DNA of 64,000 nt, from positions 1 to 64,000 of the IMG/VR virus record IMGVR_UViG_3300032288_003533; one strand, 5' to 3'. Source of the stretch: a virus. Made by a program: the position numbers and the translations under genes. Shown here one piece after another: positions 15,125-47,698 of this stretch; positions within the stretch are counted from its first letter, which is position 1, and each line of letters starts with the position of its first letter. The notes beneath the pieces are model-generated. The model did not search any database. It saw only the letters and a program-made list of their open reading frames with translations, and had not been told where the DNA came from.

Positions 15125-15691
15125 ATGGAAAAAGAAACATTAAAAAACATACTTGATTTTCTTAAACATAATGAGAATAGAAATATTCCATTTATGTGGA
15201 AATTAAAAAATAATGAACCATTCACAGATGATGAATTACACATTAAAGGTGATTTGGTTTTAGAAGAATCAAATATAACATCCTTACCAGAAGGATTAAA
15301 AGTAGGGGGTAGTTTGAATTTAGCAAGTTGCATAGATTTAAAATCATTACCAGACAATTTGAAAGTTGGTGAGAATTTGTCTTTATCTGAAACACGTTTT
15401 AGATTCTTACCAAAAGGCTTGGAAGTTGGGGGTAATTTGGATTTATATGCTTCACAAATAGACTCCTTACCAAAGGACTTGAAGGTTGGCGGGGATTTGA
15501 ATATTGAAGGCACTTACATAGAATTATTACCAAGTGGCTTACAAGTTGGTGGTGATTTATATTTGAATGATAGTGATTTGCATCACAGCATAGATTATGA
15601 TGATAGTGATGAATTAAGGGATATTGTAAAAAAAATGGTTGAACCTGGTTTTATTAAAGGTGAGGTAATTTTTGATGAGTATGATGATTGA
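15125..15691 (+). CDS. Short-LRR family protein (array 1, ~6 repeats)
   Basis: MEKETLK N-cap, xLxLxxxxIxSLPxGLKVGG units and a MVEPGFIKG C-cap. Confidence 0.9.
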   Translation: MEKETLKNILDFLKHNENRNIPFMWKLKNNEPFTDDELHIKGDLVLEESNITSLPEGLKVGGSLNLASCIDLKSLPDNLKVGENLSLSETRFRFLPKGLEVGGNLDLYASQIDSLPKDLKVGGDLNIEGTYIELLPSGLQVGGDLYLNDSDLHHSIDYDDSDELRDIVKKMVEPGFIKGEVIFDEYDD

Positions 15692-15708
15692 TTTAAATTA
15701 AATATATT

Positions 15709-16254
15709 ATGGAAAAAGAAACAATAAAAAACATATTTGAATTTATTGAAAGAAAAGATAATAGAAAAATTCCATTTATGTGGAAATTAAAAAATAATGA
15801 ACCAATAACAGAAGATGATTTGATTGTTAATGGTGATTTGGATTTGAGACCTAGTAGCATAGATTACATAGATATAGAATCATTACCAGAAGGATTAAAA
15901 GTTTCTGGTTGTTTAAATCTTATGGGTTCAGATATGAAACTTTTACCAAAAGGCTTGGAAGTTGGTGGGTATTTGGATTTAAGTTATTCACTTATAAACT
16001 CATTACCAGAAGGTTTAAAAGTTGGTGGGAGTTTATCTTTATTTGATTGTGCATATATGACTTCACTGCCAGAAGGCTTGAAGGTTGGGGGTAATTTAGA
16101 TTTAGGGGCTACAAATATAACATCATTACCAAGAGGGTTAAAAGTTGAGGGTTATATAGAGTTGAATGGTACAAAATTAACAGATTACTCAGATGATGAA
16201 TTAAGAAAAATGGTCAAACCTGGATATATAAAAGGAAGAATAATTAAATTTTAA
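15709..16254 (+). CDS. Short-LRR family protein (array 1, ~6 repeats)
   Basis: Same caps and repeat consensus as 15125. Confidence 0.9.
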   Translation: MEKETIKNIFEFIERKDNRKIPFMWKLKNNEPITEDDLIVNGDLDLRPSSIDYIDIESLPEGLKVSGCLNLMGSDMKLLPKGLEVGGYLDLSYSLINSLPEGLKVGGSLSLFDCAYMTSLPEGLKVGGNLDLGATNITSLPRGLKVEGYIELNGTKLTDYSDDELRKMVKPGYIKGRIIKF

Positions 16255-16257
16255 TTA

Positions 16258-16737
16258 ATGGAAAAAGAAACACTAAAAAAGATATTTGATTTTCTTGAAA
16301 AGAATGATAATAAAAGAAAACCACTTATGTGGAAATTAAAAAACAATATACCAATAACAGAAAAAGATGATTTGATTGTTAAAGGTAGTTTGGATTTATC
16401 TAGTTCAAACATAACCTCACTACCAAAAGGTTTGGAAGTTAAAGGTGGTTTAAGTTTATATGAATCAGAAATAATCTCCTTACCAGAAGGCTTGAAGGTT
16501 GGGGGTGATTTAGATTTAAGAAATTCATATATAGAAAGTTTACCAGAAGGATTGGAAGTTGGGGATGAATTGGATTTAGCATATACATACATAACATCAT
16601 TACCAAAAGGCTTAAAAGTTGGGGGGCTTTTGATTATAATTGAGAGTGATTTATTAAAATATTCTGATGAAGAAATAAGAAAAATGATTGAACCTGGGTA
16701 TATTAAAAAGAAAATAGTTAGAGAATATTATAGATAA
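16258..16737 (+). CDS. Short-LRR family protein (array 1, ~5 repeats)
   Basis: Same caps and repeat consensus as 15125. Confidence 0.9.
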   Translation: MEKETLKKIFDFLEKNDNKRKPLMWKLKNNIPITEKDDLIVKGSLDLSSSNITSLPKGLEVKGGLSLYESEIISLPEGLKVGGDLDLRNSYIESLPEGLEVGDELDLAYTYITSLPKGLKVGGLLIIIESDLLKYSDEEIRKMIEPGYIKKKIVREYYR

Positions 16738-16761
16738 TTTACTATATTTGCATAAAAAAAC

Positions 16762-17559
16762 ATGGACAAAGAACTTTTAAAAGAAATATTATCAATCCCC
16801 TCCTATTCAGGCAAAGAAACAAAGCTGGTTGATTTTATTACCAATTTTTTAAATACTAATGATATCAAATTCACAGTAGATGAGATGAAAAACATTTATT
16901 GTGTAAAAGGTGAAGCGGAGTATTATCCTTGTGTTGTAGCACACACAGATACTGTCCATAACAACACTTTTATAGATGTTAGGACTGAACTTAAACCAAA
17001 CTCCAAAAGAGCCTTAAAAGAGGCTTATAAGGGTTATGATGCAAAAGGAAAACCAACAGGAATTGGTGGTGATGACAAGGCTGGAGTATTTGCTTGTCTT
17101 ACCTTATTAAAGGAATTGCCAGTAATAAAAGCAGCCTTTTTTGTTTCAGAAGAAATTGGTTGCGTGGGATCACTAAAAGCTGATGCAAATTTTTTCCTAG
17201 ATGTGGGTTATGCCATTCAATTTGATGCCCCCTTTGATTGGATGGTAAGTGAAATATCATCTGGGGTTAGATTATTTGATAGAGATAGTAAGTTCTTCAC
17301 AAAGATAGATAAGGTATTAACAGAAAACACAAACCCCCAATATCAATCACACCCATATACCGATATATTTGCCTTAAAGAAATTATTTGATTTTAGTTGT
17401 GTTAATATATCAATAGGATATTATGATTATCACACAAAGGATGAATATGTTGTTTTAGAGGATGTGGAGAAAGGAATTAAAATGGGCAGAGAAATGATAG
17501 AAAGTTTGGGATGTGAAAAATATTACAAAAGATACAAACCATTAAGAATATTAGGATAA
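16762..17559 (+). CDS. M20/M28-clan zinc peptidase
   Basis: AHTDTV, GGDDKAG, SEEIG, QFD and HTKDE metal-ligand motifs. Confidence 0.88.
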   Translation: MDKELLKEILSIPSYSGKETKLVDFITNFLNTNDIKFTVDEMKNIYCVKGEAEYYPCVVAHTDTVHNNTFIDVRTELKPNSKRALKEAYKGYDAKGKPTGIGGDDKAGVFACLTLLKELPVIKAAFFVSEEIGCVGSLKADANFFLDVGYAIQFDAPFDWMVSEISSGVRLFDRDSKFFTKIDKVLTENTNPQYQSHPYTDIFALKKLFDFSCVNISIGYYDYHTKDEYVVLEDVEKGIKMGREMIESLGCEKYYKRYKPLRILG

Positions 17560-17560
17560 A

Positions 17561-17591
17561 AAGAAATGGGGGTTATTAGCCCCCATTTTTA
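17561..17591. terminator. Bidirectional intrinsic terminator
   Basis: aaatgggggttattagcccccatttt between convergent genes. Confidence 0.8.
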
Positions 17592-17592
17592 T

Positions 17593-19593: not shown

Positions 19594-19647
19594 ATCTTAT
19601 TGTTTTTTTATAAATATGCTACAAATTTTATACTAATCAAATAGTTT

Positions 19648-19722
19648 TGACAAATTGTCTTATAATTTCATTGTATTATGACAAATTGTCATATTATTAT
19701 ATAGATAACTGCCATTTTGTCA
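19648..19722. promoter_or_regulatory. Three TG(A/C)CA-N3-TGTC(A/T) palindromic boxes with 31 bp spacing
   Basis: TGACAAATTGTCT at 19648, TGACAAATTGTCA at 19679 and TGCCATTTTGTCA at 19710, between divergent clpC and hsp20. Confidence 0.7.
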
Positions 19723-19735
19723 TATAAAAATATAT

Positions 19736-19750
19736 TGGCATTAAATTTGA
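19736..19750 (+). promoter_or_regulatory. Sigma54-like -24/-12 element upstream of hsp20
   Basis: TGGCATTAAATTTGA compared with consensus TGGCAC-N5-TTGC: correct spacing, but GA instead of GC at -12. Confidence 0.45.
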
Positions 19751-19792
19751 CTTTCTCATAAAAAAAATAAACATTTATAAAAAATCAAAATT

Positions 19793-20616: not shown

Positions 20617-20620
20617 AAAA

Positions 20621-28069: not shown

Positions 28070-28081
28070 ATTATAAATTTT

Positions 28082-29938
28082 ATGAATAATAATAATCAAA
28101 ATTTAACAATTTGGCAAAGGTTATCTGCAACTTTTGGACCAAATTCATTATTAAATCAAGACATCCCAACTTATAAGTTTGATAAAAAAGAACTTTTAAG
28201 AACTCAAAACAAACTTGATTATGAAAGGGAAAAATTACAAGCACAACAATCATTTTATTTATCAAATCAATGGGCAAAGATTGATAATCATTTATATACG
28301 CAAGCCACATATTATGAGCCAACAAGATTAGCATCAATATATGATTTTGAAAGTATGGAATATACCCCAGAGATTGGTGCAGCATTAGATATATATGCTG
28401 AAGAATCCACAACAACTGATGAGGATGGGCATATGTTACAAATATATTCTGAATCAAAAAGAATAAAATCAGTATTAACTGATTTGTTCAATAATGTTTT
28501 GGACATAAATACATCATTACCAATGTGGACTAGAAATACTTGTAAGTTTGGAGATAATTTTATTTATTTAAAATTAGATCCAGAAAAAGGAATTGTTGGG
28601 GCAAACCAATTGCCAAATATTGAAATAGAAAGATTAGAACCAGGTAGTTCTGAAAAATCACCAAATTATGGGGAAATGTCATCTGAAAACAATTCTTTAA
28701 AATTTAAATGGAAAAACAAACAAATGGAATTTCAACCTTGGGAAATTGCACATTTTAGAATATTGGGGGATGATAGAAAATTACCATATGGAACATCATT
28801 GTTAGAAAAAGCAAGACGTATTTGGAAACAACTTTTATTATCAGAAGATGCTATGTTGATATATAGAACATCAAGAGCGCCAGAACGTAGAGTATTTAAA
28901 GTTTTTGTTGGTAATATGGATGATAATGATGTTGAGGCATATGTACAACGTGTTGCAAATAAATTCAAACGTGAGCAAATTGTTGATAGTAAAACAGGTA
29001 ATGTTGATATGAGGTTTAATCAAATGGCTGTGGATCAAGATTATTTCATACCAGTAAGAGACCCTGGTCAAGTTAGTCCTATTGAAACTTTACCTGGTGG
29101 AACAAATCTTGGTGAAGTTGCAGATATTGAGTATATCCAAAAAAAATTGGTTACAGCATTGAGAATACCAAAAACATTCTTGGGTTTTGAAGATGTTGCT
29201 GGTGAAGGAAAAACTTTAGCATTACAAGATATTAGATTTGCAAGAACAATAAATAGAATTCAAAAATGTATGTTAGCTGAATTAAACAAAATAGCAATTG
29301 TGCATTTGTTTATATTAGGTTTTGAGGATGAATTATCTAATTTCACACTAGGGTTAACAAATCCATCAACTCAATCAGATTTATTGAAAATAGATTTATG
29401 GGAGTCAAAAATTAGATTATATAAAGAAGCAACAGCTGATACTGGTTCAGGTATTGCGCCAACTTCAATTACTTGGGCTAAAAAACATATATTTGGTTGG
29501 TCTGATGAAGATATTAGGTTAGATTTACAACAACAAAGGGTTGAAAGGGCAGCAGCTGAAGAATTAAAACAAACAGCACTTGTTATCAAGAAAACAGGTT
29601 TATTTGATAATATTGATAAATTATATGGTTCAGTATCTGGTGCAACACCAAGTAATCAACCAACCCCACCACCAACAGATGGAATGGATATGGGTGGACT
29701 AGATATGGGTGGACTAGATATGGGAACCCCACCACCTGCACCAGCAGGAGAACCCCCAATTGAAGGAGGTGAAACACCCCCACCAGGAAGTGAGGTAACA
29801 CCAGAATCAAGAATAAAAAATTTAAACATATTACTTGAAAGTAATAAATTTAATGGTGTTAATTATGTTCCTTTAGGTAAGGGTCAAAAATCTTTGAGTG
29901 ATTTGGAAAAAGAACTAAAAAAGTTATTAGGTTCATAA
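28082..29938 (+). CDS. Portal protein (T4 gp20-like)
   Basis: EDAMLIYRTSRAPERRVF, QDYFIPVR, IETLPGG.NL and DIRFARTINRIQ. Confidence 0.95.
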   Translation: MNNNNQNLTIWQRLSATFGPNSLLNQDIPTYKFDKKELLRTQNKLDYEREKLQAQQSFYLSNQWAKIDNHLYTQATYYEPTRLASIYDFESMEYTPEIGAALDIYAEESTTTDEDGHMLQIYSESKRIKSVLTDLFNNVLDINTSLPMWTRNTCKFGDNFIYLKLDPEKGIVGANQLPNIEIERLEPGSSEKSPNYGEMSSENNSLKFKWKNKQMEFQPWEIAHFRILGDDRKLPYGTSLLEKARRIWKQLLLSEDAMLIYRTSRAPERRVFKVFVGNMDDNDVEAYVQRVANKFKREQIVDSKTGNVDMRFNQMAVDQDYFIPVRDPGQVSPIETLPGGTNLGEVADIEYIQKKLVTALRIPKTFLGFEDVAGEGKTLALQDIRFARTINRIQKCMLAELNKIAIVHLFILGFEDELSNFTLGLTNPSTQSDLLKIDLWESKIRLYKEATADTGSGIAPTSITWAKKHIFGWSDEDIRLDLQQQRVERAAAEELKQTALVIKKTGLFDNIDKLYGSVSGATPSNQPTPPPTDGMDMGGLDMGGLDMGTPPPAPAGEPPIEGGETPPPGSEVTPESRIKNLNILLESNKFNGVNYVPLGKGQKSLSDLEKELKKLLGS

Positions 29939-29961
29939 TATTTATAAAAAAAAAGAAAAAT

Positions 29962-31201: not shown

Positions 31202-31903
31202 ATGAATAGTTTAAGAATACTAGAAGCAAATGAAATTGGTCATGGAATATTAATTGAGGCAGATGCTGGGTGGATTAATCCCAAAGACCAATTAAATATT
31301 AATTTAATACAAGAAAACAAGAAGTTAGATTATAAGAACCCTTTTGAATTTTATGCTGTATTGCAAAAGCATGATGTACCAAATAGAAATGGTAGAACAT
31401 ACCCTGAAAAAATATTAAAAAGGGAGGCTGAAAGATACAAAAAAATTATTGAAAAGGGTTTATCTACTTCTGAATTAAATCACCCCGAATCATCCTTAAT
31501 TGACTTAGATAGAGTTGCTCACTTAATAACAGATATTTGGTGGGATAATAATATACTAATGGGCAAATTATTGTTATTAACTTCTCCTGGCTTCCATGAG
31601 AGGGGTATTGTATCAACCAAGGGTGATGTTGCCGCAAATCTAATGAGGCAAGGAGTAAGCCTAGGAATCAGTTCTAGGGGGGTTGGATCACTTAAAAAAG
31701 TTGGGGAGAAAAATGAGGTTCAAGATGATTTTGAATTGATTTGTTTTGATTTGGTTTCATCGCCATCAACGCCTGGGGCATACCTATTCTCAAATAAGGA
31801 AGATAGGCATAAGTATGATGAGAAATTGGAAGAAGAAAAGAAAATTGACCCATCAAATAATATATTAAAATTAATGAATAAACTTGATAGTTATTTAAAA
31901 TGA
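31202..31903 (+). CDS. Prohead core protease (T4 gp21-like)
   Basis: NRNGRTYP, ELNHPE, GISSRGVGS and FDLVSSPSTPGAY. Confidence 0.95.
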   Translation: MNSLRILEANEIGHGILIEADAGWINPKDQLNINLIQENKKLDYKNPFEFYAVLQKHDVPNRNGRTYPEKILKREAERYKKIIEKGLSTSELNHPESSLIDLDRVAHLITDIWWDNNILMGKLLLLTSPGFHERGIVSTKGDVAANLMRQGVSLGISSRGVGSLKKVGEKNEVQDDFELICFDLVSSPSTPGAYLFSNKEDRHKYDEKLEEEKKIDPSNNILKLMNKLDSYLK

Positions 31904-33210
31904 AAAAAGAAACAATAAGAAAAATAATTGATTTTATTGAAAATCAAGAAAAAAAAGCACCAACAATTAAAGGTTCTTTCTTATGGAAACTTGTGGTTCA
32001 GGAACCATTAACAAAAGAAGAGTTAAATCATAAAGGTAATTTGGATTTGACACATTCAACAATAACACAATTACCAAAAGGATTGAAAGTTGGGGGATAT
32101 TTAAATTTAGGAGCAACAGAAATAGAATTTTTACCAGAAGGATTGGAAGTTGGAGGTGGTTTATCTTTAGCATTTTCAAATATAAAATCCTTACCAAAAG
32201 GCTTGAAAGTTAGGGGGGATTTGAATTTAGATAATACAAAAATAACTTCATTACCAGAAGGATTGAAAGTTGGGGGTGTTATATATGCAACAGATTCTAA
32301 TCTACTTAATTTATTAGAAATACCAAAAAACATAGAAACTGAAGGAATTATAACTAACACCAAATTATTACTTAATCCAAATTTAAAAATAAATAGGGGT
32401 TTGAATTTATCAAATTCAAAAATAACATCCTTACCAAAAGGATTAAAAGTTAATGGTAATTTGATATTGAGTATTTCAAAAATAACAGAATTACCAAAAG
32501 GTTTGGAAGTTGGAGGTGATTTGGACTTAAATAATTCAAAAATAACCTCATTACCAGAAGGATTGAAAGTTGGAGGTATGATTTATGCAAATATGTTTAA
32601 TTTAGTAGAAATACCAAAAAATATAGAAACTATAGGAATTATAACTAACACCAATGTACTACTTTCAAGTTTAACAATAAAAAATAACTTGTATTTAGCA
32701 GGTTCAAAAATAACCTCATTACCAAAAGGCTTGAAAGTTTATGGGAATATGAGTTTAGGGCAGAGTAAAATAAAAACATTACCAGAAGGGTTAGAAGTTG
32801 GTGGTTGGCTAAATATTTCTGATACTATGATAAGAACATTACCAAAAGGATTAAAAGTTGGTGGTTCTCTGGTTATATCTTATACAAGGATAGGAAAACT
32901 ACCAAAAGGATTAAAAGTTGGGGGTATTATCTATGCAGATAAAACTTATCTATCTAATATAGATGAAATACCAAAAGATGTAATAACTAGTGGAATTTTA
33001 ACTCACAACAAATTAATAATTAATCCAAATTTACCAATAAATAATGACTTAGATTTATCTAAGTCAACAATAAATTCATTACCAAAAGGATTAAAAGTTA
33101 ATGGTAATTTAAATATTAAGAAATCAAGATTGGCAGTACATTCAGACAATGGTTTATTAGAAATGATTGGGGATGATGGCTATATAAAAGGTTCAATAAT
33201 TAGATATTAA
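31900..33210 (+). CDS. Short-LRR family protein (array 2) with three atypical inserted segments
   Basis: 436 aa, ATGA overlap with the protease stop. Standard repeats are interrupted three times by IYA...EIPKNIETxGIITNT. Confidence 0.9.
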   Translation: MKKETIRKIIDFIENQEKKAPTIKGSFLWKLVVQEPLTKEELNHKGNLDLTHSTITQLPKGLKVGGYLNLGATEIEFLPEGLEVGGGLSLAFSNIKSLPKGLKVRGDLNLDNTKITSLPEGLKVGGVIYATDSNLLNLLEIPKNIETEGIITNTKLLLNPNLKINRGLNLSNSKITSLPKGLKVNGNLILSISKITELPKGLEVGGDLDLNNSKITSLPEGLKVGGMIYANMFNLVEIPKNIETIGIITNTNVLLSSLTIKNNLYLAGSKITSLPKGLKVYGNMSLGQSKIKTLPEGLEVGGWLNISDTMIRTLPKGLKVGGSLVISYTRIGKLPKGLKVGGIIYADKTYLSNIDEIPKDVITSGILTHNKLIINPNLPINNDLDLSKSTINSLPKGLKVNGNLNIKKSRLAVHSDNGLLEMIGDDGYIKGSIIRY

Positions 33211-33611
33211 TGGAAATAGCAACATTAAAAAACATATTTAATTTCCTTGAAGGAAGTGAAAAAAAGTTCTCCATAAAATGGAAAATGATGAATAAAATCC
33301 CCTTTACTAAAGAACAATTACACGTCAAAGGTGATTTGGATTTACAAGGGGAAGACATACAACAATTGCCAGATGGGCTATATGTTAAACGTAATTTATT
33401 GTTAAATGCCACACCAATAAAAAAATTGCCAAAAGGTTTAAGAGTTGGTGGCAATTTGGAATTACAAGATTGTGAAAATTTAAAATCCCTACCAAAAGAT
33501 TTAAAAGTTCGTGGGGGTATATGGCTTGCTGGTACACCATTAGGAAGAATGTCAGATGAGAAAATATTAAACATAGTAAAACCAGATGGTTATATAGGTA
33601 AAATATATTAA
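33210..33611 (+). CDS. Short-LRR family protein (array 2, ~4 repeats)
   Basis: Same caps and repeat consensus, TAATG coupled. Confidence 0.9.
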   Translation: MEIATLKNIFNFLEGSEKKFSIKWKMMNKIPFTKEQLHVKGDLDLQGEDIQQLPDGLYVKRNLLLNATPIKKLPKGLRVGGNLELQDCENLKSLPKDLKVRGGIWLAGTPLGRMSDEKILNIVKPDGYIGKIY

Positions 33612-33612
33612 A

Positions 33613-34203
33613 ATGAAAGAAGAAACATTAGGAAAGATATTTGAATTTATCAAAGAAAACAGCAAACAAAATTTACCATTATTTTGGAAAATGAAAAATA
33701 ATATACCATTAACAGAAGAAGATTTGACTGTTAAAGGTGATTTAAATTTACATAATTCAAAAATAACATCCTTACCAGATGGATTAAAAGTTGAGGGTGA
33801 ATTGGATTTATCATATTCAAATATAAAATCATTACCAAAAGGTTTAATAGTTAATAGCCACTTAATATTAGAAGAATCAGAAATACGTTCTTTACCAGAA
33901 GGTTTAAAAGTTGGGGGCAATTTAATGTTAGCAAGTTGTGAATATATTTTTTCATTACCAAAAGGATTAAAAGTTGGACATATTTTAGATTTAACAAAAT
34001 CAAATATAAAAACATTACCAGAAGGATTGGAGGTTGGACATAGTTTATGGCTATTTGGATGTTGGGGTTTAACCTCATTACCAAAAGGCTTGAAAGTTGG
34101 GGGTGACTTAAATATTTATAAAACAAAATTAGAAGAATATTCAGATGATGAATTAAGAGAAATGATTAAACCAGGATTTATAAAAGGTTCAATAAATAGA
34201 TAA
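33613..34203 (+). CDS. Short-LRR family protein (array 2, ~7 repeats)
   Basis: Same caps and repeat consensus. Confidence 0.9.
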   Translation: MKEETLGKIFEFIKENSKQNLPLFWKMKNNIPLTEEDLTVKGDLNLHNSKITSLPDGLKVEGELDLSYSNIKSLPKGLIVNSHLILEESEIRSLPEGLKVGGNLMLASCEYIFSLPKGLKVGHILDLTKSNIKTLPEGLEVGHSLWLFGCWGLTSLPKGLKVGGDLNIYKTKLEEYSDDELREMIKPGFIKGSINR

Positions 34204-34205
34204 TA

Positions 34206-34796
34206 ATGGAAAAAGAAACATTAAAAAGAATATTTGATTTTATTGAAGGGAATGAAGGGCATAAAAAACCATTATTTTGGAAATTGAAAAATAATATACC
34301 ATTAACAGAAGAAGATTTAACTGTTAAAGGTGATTTAAATTTAGAAAATTCAAAAATAACATCCTTACCAGATGGTTTGAAAGTTGAGGGTGATTTGATG
34401 TTAACCTTTTCAAAAATAACCTCATTACCAGATAATTTACAAGTTGGGGGTCATTTAAACATAGTTGGTTGTGATGCCATAAACTCATTACCAAAAGGAT
34501 TAAAAGTTGGCGACAGTATTCAATTATCCCCAAAACGAATAGTTTCCATTGGGGAAGGATTGTTTGTTGGTGGGGATTTAAATTTATTTAATAGCCAAAT
34601 AAAATCATTACCCCAAGGAGTTAAAATTGGGGGGGAGTTAGGTTTATCCTTTACAAAACTAGAAACATTACCAAAAGGTTTGATAGTTAAAGGTGGTTTG
34701 GAGATTGCTGGAACACCATTAGAAAACTATTCAAATAAAGAATTAAGAGATATGGTTAAACCTGGTGTTATAAAAGGTCCAATAATTAGAGATTAG
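34206..34796 (+). CDS. Short-LRR family protein (array 2, ~7 repeats)
   Basis: Same caps and repeat consensus. Confidence 0.9.
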   Translation: MEKETLKRIFDFIEGNEGHKKPLFWKLKNNIPLTEEDLTVKGDLNLENSKITSLPDGLKVEGDLMLTFSKITSLPDNLQVGGHLNIVGCDAINSLPKGLKVGDSIQLSPKRIVSIGEGLFVGGDLNLFNSQIKSLPQGVKIGGELGLSFTKLETLPKGLIVKGGLEIAGTPLENYSNKELRDMVKPGVIKGPIIRD

Positions 34797-34798
34797 AA

Positions 34799-36022
34799 AT
34801 GAAAATAGAAACATTAAAAAGAATATTTGATTTTATTGAAAATAAAGAAAACAAAAAACATAAAGCCAAAGCAACTTTAAAGTGGAAGTTGTTTTTTAAT
34901 GAACCATTAACAAAAGATGATTTGATTGTTAATGGAAATTTGGATTTGGCAAATTCAAAAATAACATCTTTACCTGAAGGATTGGAAATTAAGGGTACTT
35001 TGGATTTAAGAAATTGCACAAGTTTAACATCATTACCACAAGGATTGAAAGTTGGGGGTAATTTATATTTAATTAGTTCAAAAATAACATCTTTGCCTGA
35101 AGGATTGGAAATTAAGGGTACTTTGGATTTAAGAAATTGCACAAGTTTAACATCATTACCAGAAGGATTAGAAGTTGGTGGTGATTTAAATTTATCTAAT
35201 TGCACAAGTTTAACATCATTACCACAAGGATTGAAAGTTAAAGGAGATTTAGATTTATATGGTTGTAAAAACTTAAAATACTTACCAATAGGATTGATAG
35301 TTGTTGGTGATATAAATTTACAATACTCAACAATAACAACCTTACCAGAAGGCTTAAAAGTTGGTGGTGATTTGAATTTATATAATTGCAAAAGTTTAAA
35401 ATCCCTACCAAAAGTATTGAAAGTTGGTGGTTTTTTAAATTTAAACAAATGCACAAGTTTAACATCATTACCAGAAGGATTAGAAGTTGGGGGTACATTA
35501 TATTTAAAGAATTGTTCCAAATTAAAATCATTACCAATAGGGTTGAAAATTGGGGAGGCTTTGCAATTGAATGATACAAATATAACTACTCTCCCAAAAG
35601 ATTTGAAATTTGTTACTGATTTGGATTTATCAGGTTCTAAAATAATGTCATTACCAGATAATTTACATGTTAGGGGTAGGTTAGATTTGGCTTTTTGCGA
35701 AAATTTAACTTCATTACCAACTGGATTAAAAGTTGATGGTGATTTAATATTAACCTTTGCAAAAATAACCTCATTACCAGATAATTTACAAGTTGGCAAA
35801 TATTTGGATTTGGGTAATACAAAAATAACTTCACTACCTAAAGGGTTAAAAGTTGGTAGTAGATTGAATATAAGTGGTACACAAATAACCTCATTACCAA
35901 AAGGACTAAAAGTTGGAGAAAATTTACTTATAGTGAACACAAATTTAAAAAAATATACTGATGAGGAATTAAGAGAAATGGTTAAGCCTGGATTTATAAA
36001 AGGTGAAATATATAGAGGATAA
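34799..36022 (+). CDS. Short-LRR family protein (array 2, ~17 repeats)
   Basis: 407 aa, containing a recent internal duplication offset by 123 bp (34954 and 35077). Confidence 0.9.
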   Translation: MKIETLKRIFDFIENKENKKHKAKATLKWKLFFNEPLTKDDLIVNGNLDLANSKITSLPEGLEIKGTLDLRNCTSLTSLPQGLKVGGNLYLISSKITSLPEGLEIKGTLDLRNCTSLTSLPEGLEVGGDLNLSNCTSLTSLPQGLKVKGDLDLYGCKNLKYLPIGLIVVGDINLQYSTITTLPEGLKVGGDLNLYNCKSLKSLPKVLKVGGFLNLNKCTSLTSLPEGLEVGGTLYLKNCSKLKSLPIGLKIGEALQLNDTNITTLPKDLKFVTDLDLSGSKIMSLPDNLHVRGRLDLAFCENLTSLPTGLKVDGDLILTFAKITSLPDNLQVGKYLDLGNTKITSLPKGLKVGSRLNISGTQITSLPKGLKVGENLLIVNTNLKKYTDEELREMVKPGFIKGEIYRG

Positions 36023-36327: not shown

Positions 36328-36362
36328 AAACCCCTAGCATAAAAAATGTTAGGGGTTTTTTA
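36328..36362 (+). terminator. Intrinsic terminator
   Basis: aaacccctagca...tgttaggggttttt. Confidence 0.75.
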
Positions 36363-41643: not shown

Positions 41644-41653
41644 TTTTAATACT

Positions 41654-42067: not shown

Positions 42068-42119
42068 AGTTTTTTTTATTACAAATATACTACAAGTTGT
42101 TTTAAAAATCAAATTACAT

Positions 42120-42668
42120 TCATTCCCATTCAGGATCCTCATCTAGTATATCGCCTTTAATATATCCAGGCTTAACCATTTTTTTTAATTGTTCTTCAGT
42201 GTATTTAGTTAACTTTGTGTAAGTTATATTTAATCCATCATCAACTTTCAATCCTTTTGGTAATGAGTTTAATTTGTAACAATGATTTAAATATAATGTA
42301 CCATTAACTTTTAACCCATCTGGTAATGATTCAAGTTGTTCGCAACCATATAAATCCAAATCACCACTAACTTTCAATCCTTTTGGTAATGATGTTATAT
42401 TTGAATATTGTAAAGTTAAATCACCCCCAACTTCCAATCCTTCTGGTAATGAAGTTATTTTTGAATAGTCTAAATTCAAATTGCCACTAACTTTCAATCC
42501 TTCTGGTAATGAAGTTATTTTAAAATTTGATAAATCCAAATCATCATCAATGTTTAATTCATCTTTTGTTAATGGTGAACCATTTGTTATTTTCCATAAA
42601 AATGGAATTTTTGCACCATCTAACTTTTCAAGAAAATTAAATATATTCTTTAGTGTTTCTTTTTCCAT
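42120..42668 (-). CDS. Short-LRR family protein (array 3, ~6 repeats)
   Basis: Same caps and repeat consensus. Confidence 0.9.
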   Translation of the reverse strand: MEKETLKNIFNFLEKLDGAKIPFLWKITNGSPLTKDELNIDDDLDLSNFKITSLPEGLKVSGNLNLDYSKITSLPEGLEVGGDLTLQYSNITSLPKGLKVSGDLDLYGCEQLESLPDGLKVNGTLYLNHCYKLNSLPKGLKVDDGLNITYTKLTKYTEEQLKKMVKPGYIKGDILDEDPEWE

Positions 42669-43198
42669 TATCTAATTATATTATTTATATATCCAGGATT
42701 AACCATTTGCCTTAATTCCTCAGTTGAATATTTTGTTAATGGTGTATTTTTAATAAACAAACGACCCCCAACTTTCAACCCTTTTGGTAATGATGTTATA
42801 TTTGAATGTTTCAAATCCAAAAATCTCCCAACTTTTAATCCTTCTGGTAGTGAAGTTATATTTGCACAATCAAATAAAGATAAACTCCCACCAACTTTCA
42901 ACCCTTTTGGTAATGATGTTATATTTGAATATCCCAAATCCAAAAACCCCCCAACTTCTAATCCTTCTGGTAATGATTGTATATTTTTACAACCATATAA
43001 ACTTAAATTAGCCTCAACTTTCAATCCATCTGGTAATGATTCAATATCTGTTTTTGTTAAATCCAAATCCCCTTTAACAATCAAATCATCTTTTTCTGTT
43101 ATTGGTATATTGTTTTGTAATTTCCACATAAGTGGTGCATTATGCTCACCATTTTCTTCAAGAAAATCAAATATCTTTTTTAGTGTTTCTTTTTCCAT
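42668..43198 (-). CDS. Short-LRR family protein (array 3, ~6 repeats)
   Basis: Same caps and repeat consensus, AGATAATG coupling. Confidence 0.9.
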   Translation of the reverse strand: MEKETLKKIFDFLEENGEHNAPLMWKLQNNIPITEKDDLIVKGDLDLTKTDIESLPDGLKVEANLSLYGCKNIQSLPEGLEVGGFLDLGYSNITSLPKGLKVGGSLSLFDCANITSLPEGLKVGRFLDLKHSNITSLPKGLKVGGRLFIKNTPLTKYSTEELRQMVNPGYINNIIR

Positions 43199-43845
43199 TA
43201 TCTTTCTATTTTTCCAAGTATAAATCCTGGTTTAACCATATCTCTTAATTCCTTATCTGAAAATTTTGCTAACCCAGACTCGTCAATGGCTAAATTACCA
43301 TAAACCTCCAACCCTTTTGGTAATGAAGTTAAATTTTTGCAACGCATTAAATTTAACAATCTATTAACTTTTAATTCTTTTGGTAAAAATTCTATCTCTG
43401 AATCCTCCAAAGATAATATACCAACTTCCATTCCTTCTGGTAATGATTCCAAATATGGGGTAGTATTTAAATTTAATTCACCTTCAATTTTCAATCCTTC
43501 TGGTAATGATTGTATTTGTGTATATGATAAATCCAAATCTAATTTAACTTTTAATCTTTTTGGTAATTTTCTTATTTCTGTATAATTTAAAACTAAATGT
43601 CCCCCAACTTCCAATCCTTCTGGCAATGATTTAATATCTGAATTTTGTAAAAACAAATCACCTTCAACTTTCAATCCTTCTGGCAATTCTTCTATCTCTA
43701 AATCTGATAAATTCAAATCACCTTTAACATGTAAATCATCTTCTGTTAATGGAAAACCATTTGACCATTTCCACCTAAGTGGCGTATTCCTATTATCCTT
43801 CTTTTCAAGGAAATTAAATATCTTTTTTAGTGTTTCTTTTTCCAT
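43198..43845 (-). CDS. Short-LRR family protein (array 3, ~8 repeats)
   Basis: Same caps and repeat consensus, AGATAATG coupling. Confidence 0.9.
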   Translation of the reverse strand: MEKETLKKIFNFLEKKDNRNTPLRWKWSNGFPLTEDDLHVKGDLNLSDLEIEELPEGLKVEGDLFLQNSDIKSLPEGLEVGGHLVLNYTEIRKLPKRLKVKLDLDLSYTQIQSLPEGLKIEGELNLNTTPYLESLPEGMEVGILSLEDSEIEFLPKELKVNRLLNLMRCKNLTSLPKGLEVYGNLAIDESGLAKFSDKELRDMVKPGFILGKIER

Positions 43846-43848
43846 TAT

Positions 43849-44271
43849 CTATCCTTTCTTCCATTTGCCCCCCAATTTCTTATAACGTTTTGCTGCTGCA
43901 CCATTACAATATGCGCTTGGGCATACTTTATACCTTGACCTTGCCCAACTCAAACATTGACTCCATAACTTGGGATTTGTTGGTTTATTCTTTTTTTCTT
44001 TTGCTTCTGTTATGTTTTGGTTATCTCTGTTTTCAAATTCATTCATCATAAAATCAAAAACTTGATCCAAGTTTTCTTTTGCAACTGTCACATGGTCATC
44101 AGCCCAATCATGTCCATTATTCAATAATTCATTAATTTCATCAGGTTGAAGTTCAAGCAATAATTCACATTGTCTTTTAATTTGTTTTAAGTTTCCAAAA
44201 AACATATAATTTTCTGTTGCTTGCTCATTTATTGCATTCTTAACAATTTTTTTAATTACTGGATGTATCAT
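43849..44271 (-). CDS. Hypothetical protein with INEQ leader and basic C-terminal domain (DUF5872-like)
   Basis: WADDH motif and PTNPKLWSQC...PSAY.NG...KRYKKLGGKW. Confidence 0.65.
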   Translation of the reverse strand: MIHPVIKKIVKNAINEQATENYMFFGNLKQIKRQCELLLELQPDEINELLNNGHDWADDHVTVAKENLDQVFDFMMNEFENRDNQNITEAKEKKNKPTNPKLWSQCLSWARSRYKVCPSAYCNGAAAKRYKKLGGKWKKG

Positions 44272-44409
44272 ATCTTATTTTTTATATAAATATCATTATT
44301 CTTTATTTTGATTATGGCTCTCATATTTTGATTTTAAGAGGCTTTTTGTTTTAACCTATTACTATGTCATCTTTATTAAAATATGCTGTTGTGGTTAAAT
44401 TGTGTGTGG

Positions 44410-44949
44410 TTATATCCTAATTATTCCTTGTATATAACCAGGCTTAACCATTTCTCTTAATTCTTCATTAGTAAATTTGGCTAAATTATGTTTATTATCT
44501 ATATTTAAATATCCTTTAACTATTAGTCCTTTTGGTAATCTATTTATTGGTGTGTTCATTATTATTAACCAAGTATTAATCACTAACCCTTCTGGTAGTG
44601 AAGTTACTTTTGAATTTTGTAAATATAAAGAAGTACCAATTTTAATATCATCTGGTATTTTTTTTATATTAGAGTATGATAAATCCAAAATAACACCAAC
44701 TTTCAATCCTTTTGGTAATTCTTCTAATTTTGAAAATCTAGTAATCATATTGCCTTTAACTTCCAAATTATCTGGCAATGATTTTAAATTTGAATCTGAT
44801 AAATCCAAATCACCATTAACAACTAAATCTTCTTTTGTTAGGGGTTCACCAAAATTTAATTTCCAAATAAAGTTATCTCTATTTTTATGTTTTTTGTTTT
44901 CATTCTTCTGAAGAAAATCAAATATTTTTTTTATTGTTTCTTTTTCCAT
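44410..44949 (-). CDS. Short-LRR family protein (array 4, ~6 repeats)
   Basis: Same caps and repeat consensus. Confidence 0.9.
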   Translation of the reverse strand: MEKETIKKIFDFLQKNENKKHKNRDNFIWKLNFGEPLTKEDLVVNGDLDLSDSNLKSLPDNLEVKGNMITRFSKLEELPKGLKVGVILDLSYSNIKKIPDDIKIGTSLYLQNSKVTSLPEGLVINTWLIIMNTPINRLPKGLIVKGYLNIDNKHNLAKFTNEELREMVKPGYIQGIIRI

Positions 44950-45557
44950 TATCTAATTATTTGCTCCTTTATAAATCCAGGTTTAACCATATTTCTTAAT
45001 TCTTCATCAGAAAATTTTACTAATGGTGATCCACTTATAATTAAATTCCCCCTAACTTTCAACCCTTTTGGTAATGATGTTAAACTTGTGCAATTTTCTA
45101 AATACAAATCACGACCAACTTCCAATCCTTCTGGCAAAGATGTTAAACTTGTGCAATTTTCTAAATCTAAATTATGCGCAACTTTCAATCCTTTTGGTAA
45201 AGATATTAAATTTGTTGAATTTTCTAAATATAAAGATGCTCCAAGTTCTAATCCTCTTGGCAGTGAAATTAAATCTTCACAACCTTCTAAATCTAAACGA
45301 CCCCCAACTTTTAAGTTATCAGGTAATGATTTAATAGATGAATAATTTAAAATCAAATAACCACCAACTTTCAACCCATCTGGTAATGAGGTTATTTTTG
45401 AATATGATAAATCCAAATTACCTTTTACATTTAACTCTTCTTCTGTTATTGGTTCATCAAATTTTAATTTCCAAATAATGCTATCCCTATCTTTATGTTT
45501 TTTATTTTCTTCCTTTTCAAGAAAATCAAGTATATTTTTTATTGTTTCTTTTTCCAT
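44949..45557 (-). CDS. Short-LRR family protein (array 4, ~7 repeats)
   Basis: Same caps and repeat consensus. Confidence 0.9.
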   Translation of the reverse strand: MEKETIKNILDFLEKEENKKHKDRDSIIWKLKFDEPITEEELNVKGNLDLSYSKITSLPDGLKVGGYLILNYSSIKSLPDNLKVGGRLDLEGCEDLISLPRGLELGASLYLENSTNLISLPKGLKVAHNLDLENCTSLTSLPEGLEVGRDLYLENCTSLTSLPKGLKVRGNLIISGSPLVKFSDEELRNMVKPGFIKEQIIR

Positions 45558-46036
45558 TATCTTTCTATATTTCCTTTTATATAACCATCTGGTTTGACCA
45601 TTTCTCTTATTTTTTCATCTGAAAGTTTTGCTAATGGAGTGTTTACAATATTTAAATCACATTTAACTTTTAAACCTTTTGGTAATGTTTCTATATCTGA
45701 ATATGATAAATCCAGATTACGACCAACATATAAATCACCTGGCAAGGATTTAAAACGGGTCCATTCAAAATTCAAATCACCCTCAACAAATAATTTTTCT
45801 GGGAATGTTTTTAAACTTGAGAACCGAAAATCAGCATCTCCTATAACTTTTAACCCTTTTGGTAAATGTTGTATATTTAAGCCAGATATATCCAAATCAC
45901 CTCTAACAATTAAATCTTCTTTTATTGATGGGTCATTAAACATAAATTTCCACCTTAAAGTTCCTTTGTCTTTATGTTTTTTATTATCTTCTTTTTCAAT
46001 AAATTCAAGTATATTTTTTAGTGTTTCTATTTCCAT
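45557..46036 (-). CDS. Short-LRR family protein (array 4, ~5 repeats)
   Basis: Same caps and repeat consensus. Confidence 0.9.
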   Translation of the reverse strand: MEIETLKNILEFIEKEDNKKHKDKGTLRWKFMFNDPSIKEDLIVRGDLDISGLNIQHLPKGLKVIGDADFRFSSLKTFPEKLFVEGDLNFEWTRFKSLPGDLYVGRNLDLSYSDIETLPKGLKVKCDLNIVNTPLAKLSDEKIREMVKPDGYIKGNIER

Positions 46037-46506
46037 TATCTAATTATATTTCCTTTAAATGAACCATTATTTAAATTTTTATTTCTTCTTATTTCATCAT
46101 CTGTATATTTTTTGGCAAGGAAGGATTCTCCTATATATAAATTACCACCAACATATAAATTTTTTGGAATTTCTTCAATATCTGAATGTCTGAAAAATAA
46201 ATCACCCCCAACATATAAATTGTCTGGTAATGATTCTATATTTGTATGTGATAAGTTAAAACTATCCTTAACATATAACCCTTCTGGTAATGATTCTATT
46301 AGTGAACCCAATAGCCACAATTTACCTTCAACTCTCATCCCATCAGGTAATGAGGTTACAGTTGTAAATTCCAAATTCAAATTGCCTTTTATATTTAAAT
46401 CCTCTTTTGTTAGTTCATTATTTACCCATTTCCATAAAAATGGTGTTTTGATATCATCATTTTCTTCAAGGAATTCAAATATTTTTTTTATTGTTTCTTT
46501 TTCCAT
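46036..46506 (-). CDS. Short-LRR family protein (array 4, ~5 repeats)
   Basis: Same N-cap, variant C-cap (KYTDDEIRR...GSFKGNIIR). Confidence 0.9.
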   Translation of the reverse strand: MEKETIKKIFEFLEENDDIKTPFLWKWVNNELTKEDLNIKGNLNLEFTTVTSLPDGMRVEGKLWLLGSLIESLPEGLYVKDSFNLSHTNIESLPDNLYVGGDLFFRHSDIEEIPKNLYVGGNLYIGESFLAKKYTDDEIRRNKNLNNGSFKGNIIR

Positions 46507-47213
46507 TATCTAACTATTTTTCCTTTTATAAATCCAGGTTGAATCATCTTTCTTAATCTATAATTACTAATTTCATCTAAATGGGAAAGATTCAACATTA
46601 TAGATCCATAAACTTTCAACCCTTTTGGTAATGAGGTTAAATCTGTTAGTCTTAAATCCAAATCTCCCCCAACTTTCAATCCTTCAGGTAATGATTGTAT
46701 ATTTTTACAACCAAATAACACCAAATCTTTCCTAACTTCAAGTCCTTCTGGTAATGAAGTTATTTTTGTATTATTTAAAACTAAATGCCCTCCAACTTTC
46801 AATCCTTCTGGTAATGAAGTTATTTTTGTATCATTTAAATACAAATCCCTACCAACTTTCAATCCTTTTGGTAGGAAGGTTATATCTGTATTAGATGACA
46901 ACAAATTACCACCAACTTCCAATCCTTCTGGTAATGAAGTTATTTTTGTTGACCCTAAATTTAAATCACCACCAACTTTCAAACCTTCTGGCAATGAGGT
47001 TATTTTTGATTTTCTTACATCAAAATTACCACCAACTTTTAATCCTTCTGGTAATGAGGTTATTGTTGCTCCATAAAACCACAAATTACCTATAACATCT
47101 AAATCTTCTTTGGTTATTGGCTTATTATTTAATATTTTCCATTTAAATGGTGCTCTATGTTCTCCTTTCTCTTCAAGGAATTCAAATATTCTTTTTAATG
47201 TTTCTTTTTCCAT
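46506..47213 (-). CDS. Short-LRR family protein (array 4, ~9 repeats)
   Basis: Same caps and repeat consensus. Confidence 0.9.
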   Translation of the reverse strand: MEKETLKRIFEFLEEKGEHRAPFKWKILNNKPITKEDLDVIGNLWFYGATITSLPEGLKVGGNFDVRKSKITSLPEGLKVGGDLNLGSTKITSLPEGLEVGGNLLSSNTDITFLPKGLKVGRDLYLNDTKITSLPEGLKVGGHLVLNNTKITSLPEGLEVRKDLVLFGCKNIQSLPEGLKVGGDLDLRLTDLTSLPKGLKVYGSIMLNLSHLDEISNYRLRKMIQPGFIKGKIVR

Positions 47214-47698
47214 TATCTAACTATTTTTCCTTTTATATAACCATCTGAACCAATCATCTTTAATAAAACAGAATCTGAAAGTTTTGCCAATGGTGTTTTT
47301 ATAAGATATAAATTTTCTTCAACTTTCAACCCTTCTGGTAATGATGTTAAACTTGTGCAATTTTCTAAATATAAATAATCCCCAACTTCCAATCCTTCTG
47401 GCAATGATGTTAAACTTGTGCAATTTTCTAAAGATAACTTCCCCCCAACTTTTAACCCTTTTGGTAAGGATGTTAAATTTGTGCAATTATATAAATTTAA
47501 ATAATCTTTAATTTCCAATCCTTCTGGTAATGATGTTATTTTTAAATTTGCCAAATTTAAATTATCTACAATCAAATCATCTTTTGTTAATGGTTCATTG
47601 AAAAATAATTTCCATCTTAAAGTTCCCTTGTTTTTATTTTTTTTGTTTTCTTTATCTTCAAGAAAATCAAATATTTTTTTTAATGTTTTATTTTCCAT
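47213..47698 (-). CDS. Short-LRR family protein (array 4, ~5 repeats)
   Basis: TAATG-coupled to the upstream 500 aa gene. Confidence 0.9.
   Translation of the reverse strand: MENKTLKKIFDFLEDKENKKNKNKGTLRWKLFFNEPLTKDDLIVDNLNLANLKITSLPEGLEIKDYLNLYNCTNLTSLPKGLKVGGKLSLENCTSLTSLPEGLEVGDYLYLENCTSLTSLPEGLKVEENLYLIKTPLAKLSDSVLLKMIGSDGYIKGKIVR

Follow-up and report, generated by a model that had tools for sequence, protein, structure and literature searches.

The window analyzed here, a stretch of 64,000 nucleotides, is part of the genome of an uncultured giant T4-like phage of roughly 300 kb. It carries 17 intact paralogs encoding LRR proteins, which lie in four arrays with a summed length of 10,683 nt, or 14% of the 76,232-b contig. 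HMMs of the N-cap and C-cap matched these 17 ORFs and no others in the contig. The original prediction of 17 intact ORFs in four arrays was thereby borne out in full, every gene lying where it had been placed:

15125-16737, plus strand: array A, three LRR genes
15125..15691, plus strand: LRR gene of array A, 188 aa (N-cap E 2.5e-29, C-cap E 6.9e-11)
15709..16254, plus strand: LRR gene of array A, 181 aa (cap HMMs; G003 ortholog, 90% identity)
16258..16737, plus strand: LRR gene of array A, 159 aa (cap HMMs; G003 ortholog, 94% identity)
31900-36022, plus strand: array B, five LRR genes
31900..33210, plus strand: LRR gene of array B, 436 aa (cap HMMs)
33210..33611, plus strand: LRR gene of array B, 133 aa, the smallest member (cap HMMs)
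33613..34203, plus strand: LRR gene of array B, 196 aa, the modeled member (AlphaFold2; PDB profile match)
34206..34796, plus strand: LRR gene of array B, 196 aa (cap HMMs; orthologs in G003, 86%, and G001, 80%)
34799..36022, plus strand: LRR gene of array B, 407 aa, 16 anchors (sequence, repeat anchors)
42120-43845, minus strand: array C, three LRR genes
42120..42668, minus strand: LRR gene of array C, 182 aa (cap HMMs)
42668..43198, minus strand: LRR gene of array C, 176 aa (cap HMMs)
43198..43845, minus strand: LRR gene of array C, 215 aa (cap HMMs)
44410-47698, minus strand: array D, six LRR genes
44410..44949, minus strand: LRR gene of array D, 179 aa (cap HMMs; G001 ortholog, 78%)
44949..45557, minus strand: LRR gene of array D, 202 aa (cap HMMs)
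45557..46036, minus strand: LRR gene of array D, 159 aa (cap HMMs)
46036..46506, minus strand: LRR gene of array D, 156 aa (cap HMMs)
46506..47213, minus strand: LRR gene of array D, 235 aa (cap HMMs)
47213..47698, minus strand: LRR gene of array D, 161 aa (cap HMMs)

Neighboring LRR genes are translationally coupled as strings via TAATG or ATGA overlaps. Moreover, the start of gene 31900..33210 overlaps the stop of the prohead protease gene (ATGA), and the start of gene 47213..47698 overlaps the stop of a conserved 500-aa gene (47698-49200). Three irregular segments of 56-60 residues lie inside the product of 31900..33210, while gene 34799..36022 contains internal duplications, including a 66-nt exact internal repeat, and yielded weak Pfam matches to LRR_EndoS and LRR_4. 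With the latter gene, 47213..47698 shares 82.6% identity over its own first 380 nt. Clear orthologs in G001 were found for only two genes, one of them 44410..44949.

The LP-anchored repeats have a period of 20 or 21 residues, and each gene contains 3-16 LP anchors plus one leading partial repeat, in agreement with the 4 to ~17 repeats predicted. The fixed scaffold (LPxGLxVGG..L.L..[S/T/C].[I/L]) shows an entropy of 0.1-1.2 bits over 81 repeats, against 3.0-3.4 bits at positions 10, 12, 14, 15, and 17 from LP, with all other positions in between at 1.7-2.5 bits. This per-position check concentrates the variation at xLxLxx[S/T]x, very much as had been claimed for xLxLxx. In a wider set drawn from three phages (83 proteins, 213 distinct 20-mers), entropy at the variable positions reaches 3.1-3.7 bits, and the scaffold stays at or below 1.2 bits in 272 distinct repeats too, indicating that an LRR-type tandem repeat core is present. 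In LRR solenoids generally, the residues of the xLxLxx strand, together with the ascending loop, line the concave sheet; on the basis of predicted secondary structure and this canonical geometry, the variable residues of the phage proteins are predicted to sit on the concave binding face. The AlphaFold2 model of the 33613..34203 product (pLDDT 91.5, pTM 0.82), with two short strands per repeat, is a confident one for this single member and suggests that the family members are curved LRR solenoids; all Foldseek and profile matches of the family are LRR proteins. The caps, predicted to consist of two helices (N-cap) and of a helix plus a short hairpin (C-cap), appear to be family specific. Their claimed constancy stands insofar as both are present in all 17 proteins, but the Glu of the F[LI]E motif is missing in 3 of the 17. 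No other domains were found in the 17 proteins (Pfam, sequence), and their N termini read as hydrophilic amphipathic helices, consistent with the predicted absence of signal peptides. Cysteines are scarce (0-3 in most genes, none in the caps). Finally, D, N, S, and Y abound at the variable positions of the three-phage repeat set and the pI of the LRR proteins ranges from 4.4 to 9.5, which together point to diversified surfaces.

The closest solved relative is Vibrio alginolyticus FlrP (PDB 8z5u/8z5w/8z60), a bacterial protein of the periplasm that is present in single copy, binds the flagellar rod, and has a Sec signal at residues 1-19 (bioRxiv 10.64898/2025.12.04.692373). The similarity is strong at the profile level (E 2e-35 for 33613..34203 against 8z5u_0) and recognizable by Foldseek (E 1e-4, TM 0.59-0.64): both proteins are beta-solenoids of about 200 aa with two short strands per coil and the repeat type LPxGLxV.G.L.L... 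However, FlrP has neither the phage N-cap nor the C-cap and belongs to no gene family, whereas the phage proteins have hydrophilic N-terminal helices in place of a Sec signal. Next among the PDB relatives are designed LRRs, SspH1/SlrP, and VLR-derived repebodies. Type III effectors of the SspH1, SlrP, IpaH, and YopM class (LRR profile matches with E 1e-12 to 1e-13), which are delivered into the target cell and bind host proteins, share the 20-22-residue LP-motif LRRs and a helical N-terminal cap, but in the phage proteins a secretion signal is missing, as is any effector domain, NEL ligase included. Full-length membership in these effector families was rejected (NCBIfam, 22-59 bits versus cutoffs of 1113-1243). 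As for the proposed parallel with lamprey VLRs, the cap-repeats-cap architecture holds, as do the variable concave strand and variable module number shared with lamprey and hagfish VLRs and repebodies; the profile matches (E 1e-8 to 1e-12), however, run through the repeats only. VLR caps are disulfide-knotted LRRNT and LRRCT modules, and VLR diversity is built somatically from incomplete cassettes, whereas the phage has 17 complete capped genes with unrelated, helical, Cys-poor caps that lack Cys knots, and its diversity is inherited, with no somatic assembly.

The probable timing of expression is judged from the following elements:

15100..15110, plus strand: late-type promoter-like motif ATATTTATATA, 16 nt before the start of array A
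29938..29948, plus strand: late-type motif ATATTTATATA, at the head of the unit running from 29962 through the protease to array B
31202..31903, plus strand: prohead core protease, T4 gp21 type (Pfam Peptidase_S77, E 3.7e-23; phrog_207)
36328..36358, plus strand: terminator-like hairpin of 13 pairs, after array B and a 69-aa gene
44283..44293, minus strand: late-type motif ATATTTATATA, before gene 43849-44271

Upstream of genes, the late-type motif is enriched 11-fold. The genes for terminase, protease, scaffold, tail sheath, and head-tail adaptor have it 9-25 nt ahead of their ATG, as do LRR arrays. It also precedes the ClpC and M20 peptidase genes; the DNA polymerase and DnaB genes are not preceded by it. 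Array B, directly coupled to the protease gene and flanked on its other side by the scaffold/gp23 genes, is inside the prohead operon, and no terminator-like site was found on the plus strand of its unit before 36328. Every relative examined carries 1-5 LRR genes at this protease-scaffold site. On the other strand, gene 43849-44271 continues into array C via the junction AGATAATGGAAA, a motif with eight exact occurrences; no late-type motif was found near array D. With at least three of the four arrays in or behind motif units of virion genes, and one of them in the prohead operon, the LRR proteins are, judging by this sequence motif, probably made late, with the particle; the motif's presence before the ClpC and M20 peptidase genes and its absence near array D count against such timing. 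This link, together with the strain-level gain or loss of whole genes described below, is new in this analysis.

The family is not confined to this genome. A 90%-complete, 270-kb relative has 41 copies at about nine sites, some of its arrays lying among nonstructural genes, and a 107-kb fragment has 25; like all 17 ORFs here, nearly all of these 66 are intact, with both caps. Across diverged lineages, the family takes up 8-14% of the genome. More than 2,000 relatives, all unnamed, were found in metagenomes, the Atlas clusters containing the family are 85-100% viral, and a search of 185,579 prokaryote genomes yielded no capped homolog. The multigene family is phage specific. The nearest isolates (42-46% MCP identity) do not have it. 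Our literature search found no paper on it, in line with the view that it had not previously been characterized.

As predicted, array content is not fixed across relatives, with per-site gene counts of 1-5, 0-4, and 6-10. Strain L001, 98% identical, is without exactly one whole gene (31900-33210), the junction falling at the start codon. Repeat number also differs between orthologs, given that the 176-aa product of 42668..43198 pairs by its caps with that of a 134-aa G003 gene. The omega of LRR orthologs is 0.18-0.74, compared with about 0.1 for other and neighboring genes; scaffold sites give 0.14 and variable-face sites 0.70, and in close orthologs the cap classes (variable linker included) keep pace with the variable face. 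Ortholog evolution is thus relaxed or diversifying. Since omega does not rise above 1 in any site class and the caps change no more slowly than the variable face, relaxed constraint could by itself account for what is seen; moreover, LRR families in general show high entropy at solvent-exposed strand positions, which weakens the binder reading. A search of the contig and of four related records, including one that is 90% complete, gave no RVT_1 match indicative of a reverse transcriptase or DGR, control genomes being positive, and no recent gene conversion was seen, the paralogs being 69-83% identical at the DNA level with no pair above 83%. In both respects the family differs from DGR targets. 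The predicted library of different binders therefore survives as a capped LRR family with focused variability, but not as one that is diversified in an active sense: without a reverse transcriptase or recent conversion, the set looks inherited.

It seems very improbable to us that this is a selfishly expanding tandem family under relaxed constraint, without paralog-specific function. Omega values of 0.2-0.7, a freely varying copy number, and conserved junctions that favor unequal crossing-over would all fit, but the intactness of the ORFs and their caps, the low scaffold omega, and the retention of so large a share of a size-limited genome across diverged lineages all speak against it. Unlikely, though less so, is the idea that the constant N-cap serves for capsid targeting, as the T4 CTS does, and loads the proteins into the prohead, from which they would be ejected with the DNA to neutralize host defenses before any phage gene is expressed. 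The location of array B in each relative and the late-type promoter units argue for this, as does the precedent of T4 IPI, IPII, and IPIII, diverse and fast-changing small proteins of a T4-type phage that likewise share a constant N terminus and form a hypervariable set in which only the targeting sequence is conserved (PMC3012670). Further points in its favor are that N-cap residues are lineage specific across paralogs (T5 and K/N8 in G000/G003, A/Q5 and R8 in G001) and that an N-cap in G001 (205033-205371), preceded by its own late-type motif, is fused to a non-LRR domain, the single exception to the rule that the constant N-cap is joined to the same LRR body. Unlike the T4 internal proteins, however, the LRR family, known here from its genes, does not conserve the (L/I)xE cleavage site: besides the loss of Glu noted above, P3 is Phe and not Leu or Ile. 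The phage's apparent own leader is an amphipathic helix ending in [ILV]xEQ, present on at least nine other proteins, including the scaffold (12 of 21 occurrences are within the first 60 residues), and since none of the LRR genes has this signature, the reading of the N-cap as a cleaved capsid-targeting leader is not supported. In addition, the N-terminal helix has the wide hydrophobic face expected of a structural cap, the pI is heterogeneous and not uniformly basic, and G001 has many of its arrays outside structural modules.

We regard it as decidedly improbable that the proteins are virion-surface accessory adhesins, attached to a capsid or tail protein by their caps, with variable faces that bind host-envelope glycans or proteins and so widen or tune adsorption. 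Apparent late-type coexpression, judged from the motifs, a D/N/S/Y-rich variable face, and the translational coupling of array D to the strongly conserved 500-aa protein, which has Ig-like beta-sandwich domains and whose gene belongs to a string also encoding a tape-measure-like protein, are compatible with such a role, and LRR domains occur on proposed host-recognition fibers of phage Goslar (bioRxiv 10.64898/2026.04.21.720040). Against this, the proteins lack an anchoring domain apart from the small caps, which are under no stronger constraint than the remaining protein; the model of the 500-aa neighbor is poor (pLDDT 53) with generic fold matches; and 41 different decorations on one docking site would be without precedent. 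Equally hard to credit as the selfish family is a set of substrate adaptors for phage ClpC/ClpP, with caps docking on ClpC and variable faces picking host proteins for degradation, for which poxvirus ankyrin/F-box proteins offer an analogy. Although array A adjoins ClpC and M20 peptidase genes in three phages, with ClpP and tmRNA close by within the window and all of these carrying the promoter-like motif, clpC is near only one of about nine array sites, and the proteins do not resemble the known adaptors MecA, McsB, or ClpS.

On balance, we consider it reasonably likely that this one phage-specific family is an inherited, fast-changing repertoire of candidate binders, renewed by birth and death. 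Each gene would yield a small, soluble, capped solenoid without a signal peptide, and each paralog, differing in variable residues and repeat number, would present a different binding surface, so that the phage would carry a germline repertoire of binders. Rather than by targeted mutagenesis, this repertoire may shift by birth and death, as ordinary homologous recombination at the conserved sequences of caps and scaffold adds, removes, and reshuffles whole genes or repeats in fixed genomic hot spots. Plant NLR/R-gene clusters undergo comparable birth and death, via unequal crossing-over, gene conversion, and repeat indels, with variation at solvent-exposed strand positions, but plant NLRs are host immune receptors with signaling domains, unlike the phage LRR proteins. 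Translation would be coupled and expression late, alongside the particle, and the putative targets would be host (or rival) proteins, perhaps the defense or regulatory proteins first proposed. As the site of action, the cytoplasm of the producing cell is the leading candidate, at less than even odds; carriage inside the head with delivery to the next cell is a lesser possibility, display on the particle is distinctly unlikely, and the remainder falls to other sites. Rather unlikely, too, is the more far-reaching version, in which the N-cap serves for capsid loading or particle docking and each particle ships a premade library of dozens of different thin LRR binders, delivered with the DNA to disarm whatever defense proteins the next host has.

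Families of this kind are known from large eukaryotic viruses: the FNIP-LRR and ankyrin families of mimivirus and CroV and the ankyrin families of poxviruses comprise dozens of tandem, strain-variable paralogs and are proposed host-factor binders (PMC5753266, PMC9525666). The phage family resembles them in its tandem clusters, variable copy number (17, 25, and 41), and sizeable genome share, but they differ in their eukaryotic hosts and repeat types, and our literature search found no described bacteriophage counterpart. If the 17 to more than 40 cassette-swapped paralogs are indeed binders, they would constitute that counterpart, as well as one to host LRR immune repertoires. To our knowledge, phage counterdefense proteins described to date come from single genes or from small sets; should the shipped-library reading prove true, the family would amount to a protein-level combinatorial counterdefense repertoire, renewed by cassette exchange between phages. 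As binders, the proteins would also provide a compact (130-200 aa), cysteine-poor scaffold of natural origin, along with a catalogue of thousands of natural variants. Two questions are thereby made testable: to what use large phages put paralog families in bulk, and whether the products are delivered with the particle.

All 17 capped leucine-rich-repeat (LRR) genes were recovered by open reading frame (ORF) listing and translation, intact, at exactly the coordinates of the original prediction and in the same four arrays:

15125-16737, + strand, array A, three LRR genes
31900-36022, + strand, array B, five LRR genes
42120-43845, - strand, array C, three LRR genes
44410-47698, - strand, array D, six LRR genes

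Cap HMMs, covering the first 50 and the last 32 residues of the proteins, matched these 17 ORFs and no other ORF of the 76,232-base contig, 14% of which (10,683 nt) is taken up by LRR genes. The repeat unit spans 20 or 21 residues. Each gene has one leading partial repeat in addition to its LP anchors, which number 3 to 16, and the 436-amino-acid (aa) gene of array B contains three irregular segments of 56 to 60 residues each. The claim that the proteins have no visible signal peptide holds for all 17 N termini, as judged from the sequences. Since their pI values span 4.4 to 9.5, a role as DNA mimics or histone-like proteins was rejected.

The completeness of the IMG/VR record is estimated at 24%, implying a full genome of about 300 kb. 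The contig carries a T4-type head module (large terminase, gp20-type portal, Peptidase_S77 prohead protease, and gp23-type capsid protein); its closest isolates, Flavobacterium phage immuto and Microcystis phage Mel-JY01, share a capsid identity of only 42 to 46%, and the LRR family was found in neither. The host of the phage probably belongs to the Flavobacteriia. The start of array B overlaps the stop codon of the prohead protease gene (ATGA), and its end lies 76 nt from a gene for a 69-aa protein, beyond which follow the genes for an acidic scaffold-like protein and the capsid protein. Three other features belong to the surroundings of the arrays:

14543-14964, - strand, tmRNA (Rfam RF00023, 87.1 bits, E = 4e-34, full length)
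38148-39929, + strand, gp23-type capsid protein, 593 aa
47698-49200, - strand, gene for a 500-aa protein, upstream of array D

ARAGORN reported no tmRNA at 14543-14964. Together with the tmRNA, the region around array A (7659-20616) contains genes for ClpP-like, thioredoxin, ThyX-like, M20-type peptidase, Hsp20-like, and cyclophilin-like proteins and for a ClpC-like ATPase (phrog_4871, E = 4e-228), and its gene arrangement is kept both in the closest relative (G003) and in a 270-kb relative (G001). Because the best Pfam Gp23 stretch begins only near residue 318, the sequence of the capsid protein suggests a large N-terminal or inserted region. The 500-aa protein, constant in length and with approximately 60% identity across more than 3,000 metagenome proteins, is encoded by a core gene of this phage group; it received no assignment from Pfam, PHROGs, or NCBIfam, and its AlphaFold model is poor (pLDDT 53; generic Ig-like fold matches) except for two Ig-like beta-sandwich domains in the C-terminal half.

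As had been predicted, variation is concentrated rather than spread evenly over the repeat. In the aligned repeats, per-position entropy (counted from LP) is 0.1 to 1.0 bit at positions 1, 2, 5, 7, 11, 13, and 18, compared to 3.0 to 3.4 bits at positions 10, 12, 14, 15, and 17, with the remaining surface positions at 1.7 to 2.5 bits; when the set is widened to 83 proteins of the family from three phages (213 distinct 20-mers), entropy at the variable positions reaches 3.1 to 3.7 bits, and D, N, S, and Y are frequent there. Taken alone, such focused variability shows a usable binding face and not selection for diversity, since the same pattern is common to LRR families generally. From a 23-sequence alignment of an array B gene (33613-34200), AlphaFold2 produced a confident model (pLDDT 91.5, pTM 0.82) with a short strand at "KV" and another at "LxL" in each repeat; the repeats are preceded by two helices (residues 3 to 17, pLDDT 60 to 72, and residues 23 to 28) and followed by a helix pair and two short strands. 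The variable residues sit beside and after the LxL strand. In LRR solenoids, that strand forms the concave sheet and the residues following it form the ascending loop, and by this established geometry the variable residues would lie on both. Among solved structures, the closest relative is Vibrio FlrP (profile E = 2e-35, Foldseek E = 1e-4), a periplasmic LRR protein that sits on the flagellar rod, followed by designed LRRs, the LRR domains of SspH1, SlrP, and IpaH, and VLR-derived repebodies. Pfam, PHROGs, and NCBIfam gave LRR matches that were weak and far under their cutoffs.

Selection was estimated (Nei-Gojobori) from orthologs shared by the contig and G003. The dN/dS ratio (omega) of LRR genes is 0.18 to 0.74, versus about 0.04 to 0.2 in most neighbors. 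Split by site class, omega is 0.14 for the scaffold, 0.35 for other repeat positions, and 0.70 for the variable face; the N-cap and C-cap classes, both of which include variable linkers, are at 0.81 and 0.82, and no gene or site class in this ortholog set exceeds 1, so that positive selection is not shown. Both relaxed constraint and diversifying selection acting on some of the sites are compatible with these values. The synonymous divergence of LRR orthologs (dS of 0.04 to 0.18 versus 0.2 to 0.6 in neighbors) comes from high-identity pairs only, in mosaic genomes, for which reason we dropped it as a sign of recent cassette exchange; codon bias was excluded as its cause (ENC of 31 versus 33.7).

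The term "diversified" in the original prediction stands in the sense of inherited birth-and-death with rapid cassette turnover but not in that of an active mechanism. Five records contain no reverse transcriptase and the window no near-identical paralog tracts, which led us to reject active diversification (DGR); with DNA identities among the window's paralogs of 69 to 83%, the diversity is old and inherited and not made on the spot. Array sites are conserved among relatives, but array content, as anticipated, is not fixed: the protease-scaffold site has 1 to 5 LRR genes (each of the nine loci seen has one or more), 6 to 10 follow gene 47698, and 0 to 4 lie between 43849 and 41654. Site-consistent orthologs (70 to 98% identity) of 11 to 13 of the 17 genes are present in G003, the rest being without counterpart, and G001, with core genes 80 to 93% identical, has orthologs of only two. 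A 98%-identical strain from another sample (L001) lacks exactly the 436-aa gene, the junction being the start codon. Eight exact copies of AGATAATGGAAA join LRR genes head to tail and are natural substrates of unequal crossing-over; exact modules of 30 to 46 nt common to different arrays are compatible with gene conversion, although they are near chance level at ~75% identity. Cap-based trees pair genes of unequal repeat number (e.g., 176 aa and 134 aa). In the same trees, the G001 copies group together, and N-cap residues are lineage specific across paralogs, which indicates lineage-specific expansion, cap homogenization, or coevolution with a common partner. The portal segment of L001 (opposite 27600-29900) is only 70 to 91% identical to the window, the remainder being 98% identical, and this segment is a mosaic replacement within an essential head gene; it also explains why the LRR genes of L001 seemed closer than their flanks.

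An 8-mer, TATTTATA, in the wider form (A)TATTTATA(W)A (e.g., at 15100, 21150, 22196, 29938, 36066, 39993, and 44283), lies 9 to 25 nt upstream of the ATG in 15 of the 94 genes here and in 51 of 369 in G001, an 11-fold enrichment before start codons over the genome. It heads the genes for terminase, prohead protease, scaffold, tail sheath (phrog_23), and head-tail adaptor, as well as those for ClpC and the M20 peptidase, and is absent ahead of the DNA polymerase and DnaB genes of G001. We take it to be a candidate late promoter for the phages of this group, distinct from the T4 late promoter TATAAATA. The motif stands directly ahead of array A, ahead of gene 43849-44271, which continues into array C, and ahead of the unit beginning at 29962, which includes the protease and array B and has no terminator-like site before 36328. 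From this sharing of a motif with virion genes, we infer late coexpression for three of the four arrays; array D, with no such motif nearby, is coupled to a codirectional string of conserved genes (47698-57508). A scan for sigma-70-type promoters gave no more matches than shuffled sequence.

The main rival to a library of binders is that the LRR proteins are head cargo, loaded into the prohead via the N-cap. The internal proteins of T4, a hypervariable counterdefense set, share a targeting leader that is removed by gp21 after (L/I)xE (PMC3012670). The position of array B is suggestive in this respect, and the N-cap, with its lineage-specific signatures, looks modular: a 112-aa G001 protein (L053:5033-5371; G001 205033-205371, - strand) joins approximately 40 N-cap residues to an unrelated, non-LRR C-terminal part of 70 residues and has its own late-type motif. 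However, the phage's own leader signature, [ILV]xEQ, occurs on none of the 17 LRR genes, and the F[LI]E motif of the N-cap places a Phe at P3 and is missing its Glu in three of them, so that a gp21-cleaved capsid-targeting sequence is disfavored. Moreover, the five conserved hydrophobic residues of the first helix line up on a single broad face, as they would in a structural cap, and helical caps are known from YopM-class LRR proteins, to which this helix can be likened. Head cargo survives as a rival, but an unlikely one. The leader signature itself falls within the first 60 residues in 12 of its 21 occurrences in the proteome and ends an amphipathic N-terminal helix in nine or more unrelated proteins, among which are a run of five consecutive ones and the acidic scaffold-like protein. 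Proteins with this leader are encoded at

626-7549
24104-26232
36436-38121
43849-44271

and many of their G001 relatives start with MK..RLTE..L..L[IV]KR[IV]I.EQ and have the late-type motif. These leaders are probably prohead-protease propeptides or capsid-targeting leaders, marking the real internal-protein set of the phage.

More than 2,000 metagenome proteins match the LRR family, all of them unnamed and lacking a Pfam domain; viral proteins make up 85 to 100% of the nearest Atlas clusters, and a few BFVD entries (34 to 37% identity) are titled "leucine-rich repeat [uncultured Caudovirales phage]." From IMG/VR, 42 loci were recovered. In G001 (90% complete), 41 members are spread over about nine sites and account for 8.1% of the DNA, and a 107-kb fragment has 25 (12.3%). 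No capped relative came up in a pattern scan of 185,579 prokaryote species, each represented by one genome, and the family was absent from the isolated phages examined. The same repeat type with other ends occurs in a more distant T4-like record and in the temperate Edwardsiella phage Edno5, the only isolated phage with it, so the repeat unit predates these caps. The Edno5 gene (L063:5986-6729) is flanked by cI and exo/recT in the early-left region. The record G005 (L064-L067) has at least six LRR proteins of 231 to 506 aa with other N- and C-terminal modules, sharing a conserved C-terminal motif that ends in KFAKFF. The literature searched gave no description of a phage family of such proteins; among published systems, the repeat-protein families of giant viruses come nearest. 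The LRR family is phage specific and uncharacterized, and it belongs with two known kinds of system, LRR binders and multigene families of repeat proteins in viruses. The underlying observation is confirmed, and the reading of these proteins with the best support, though unproven, is that of a library of binders differing in specificity.
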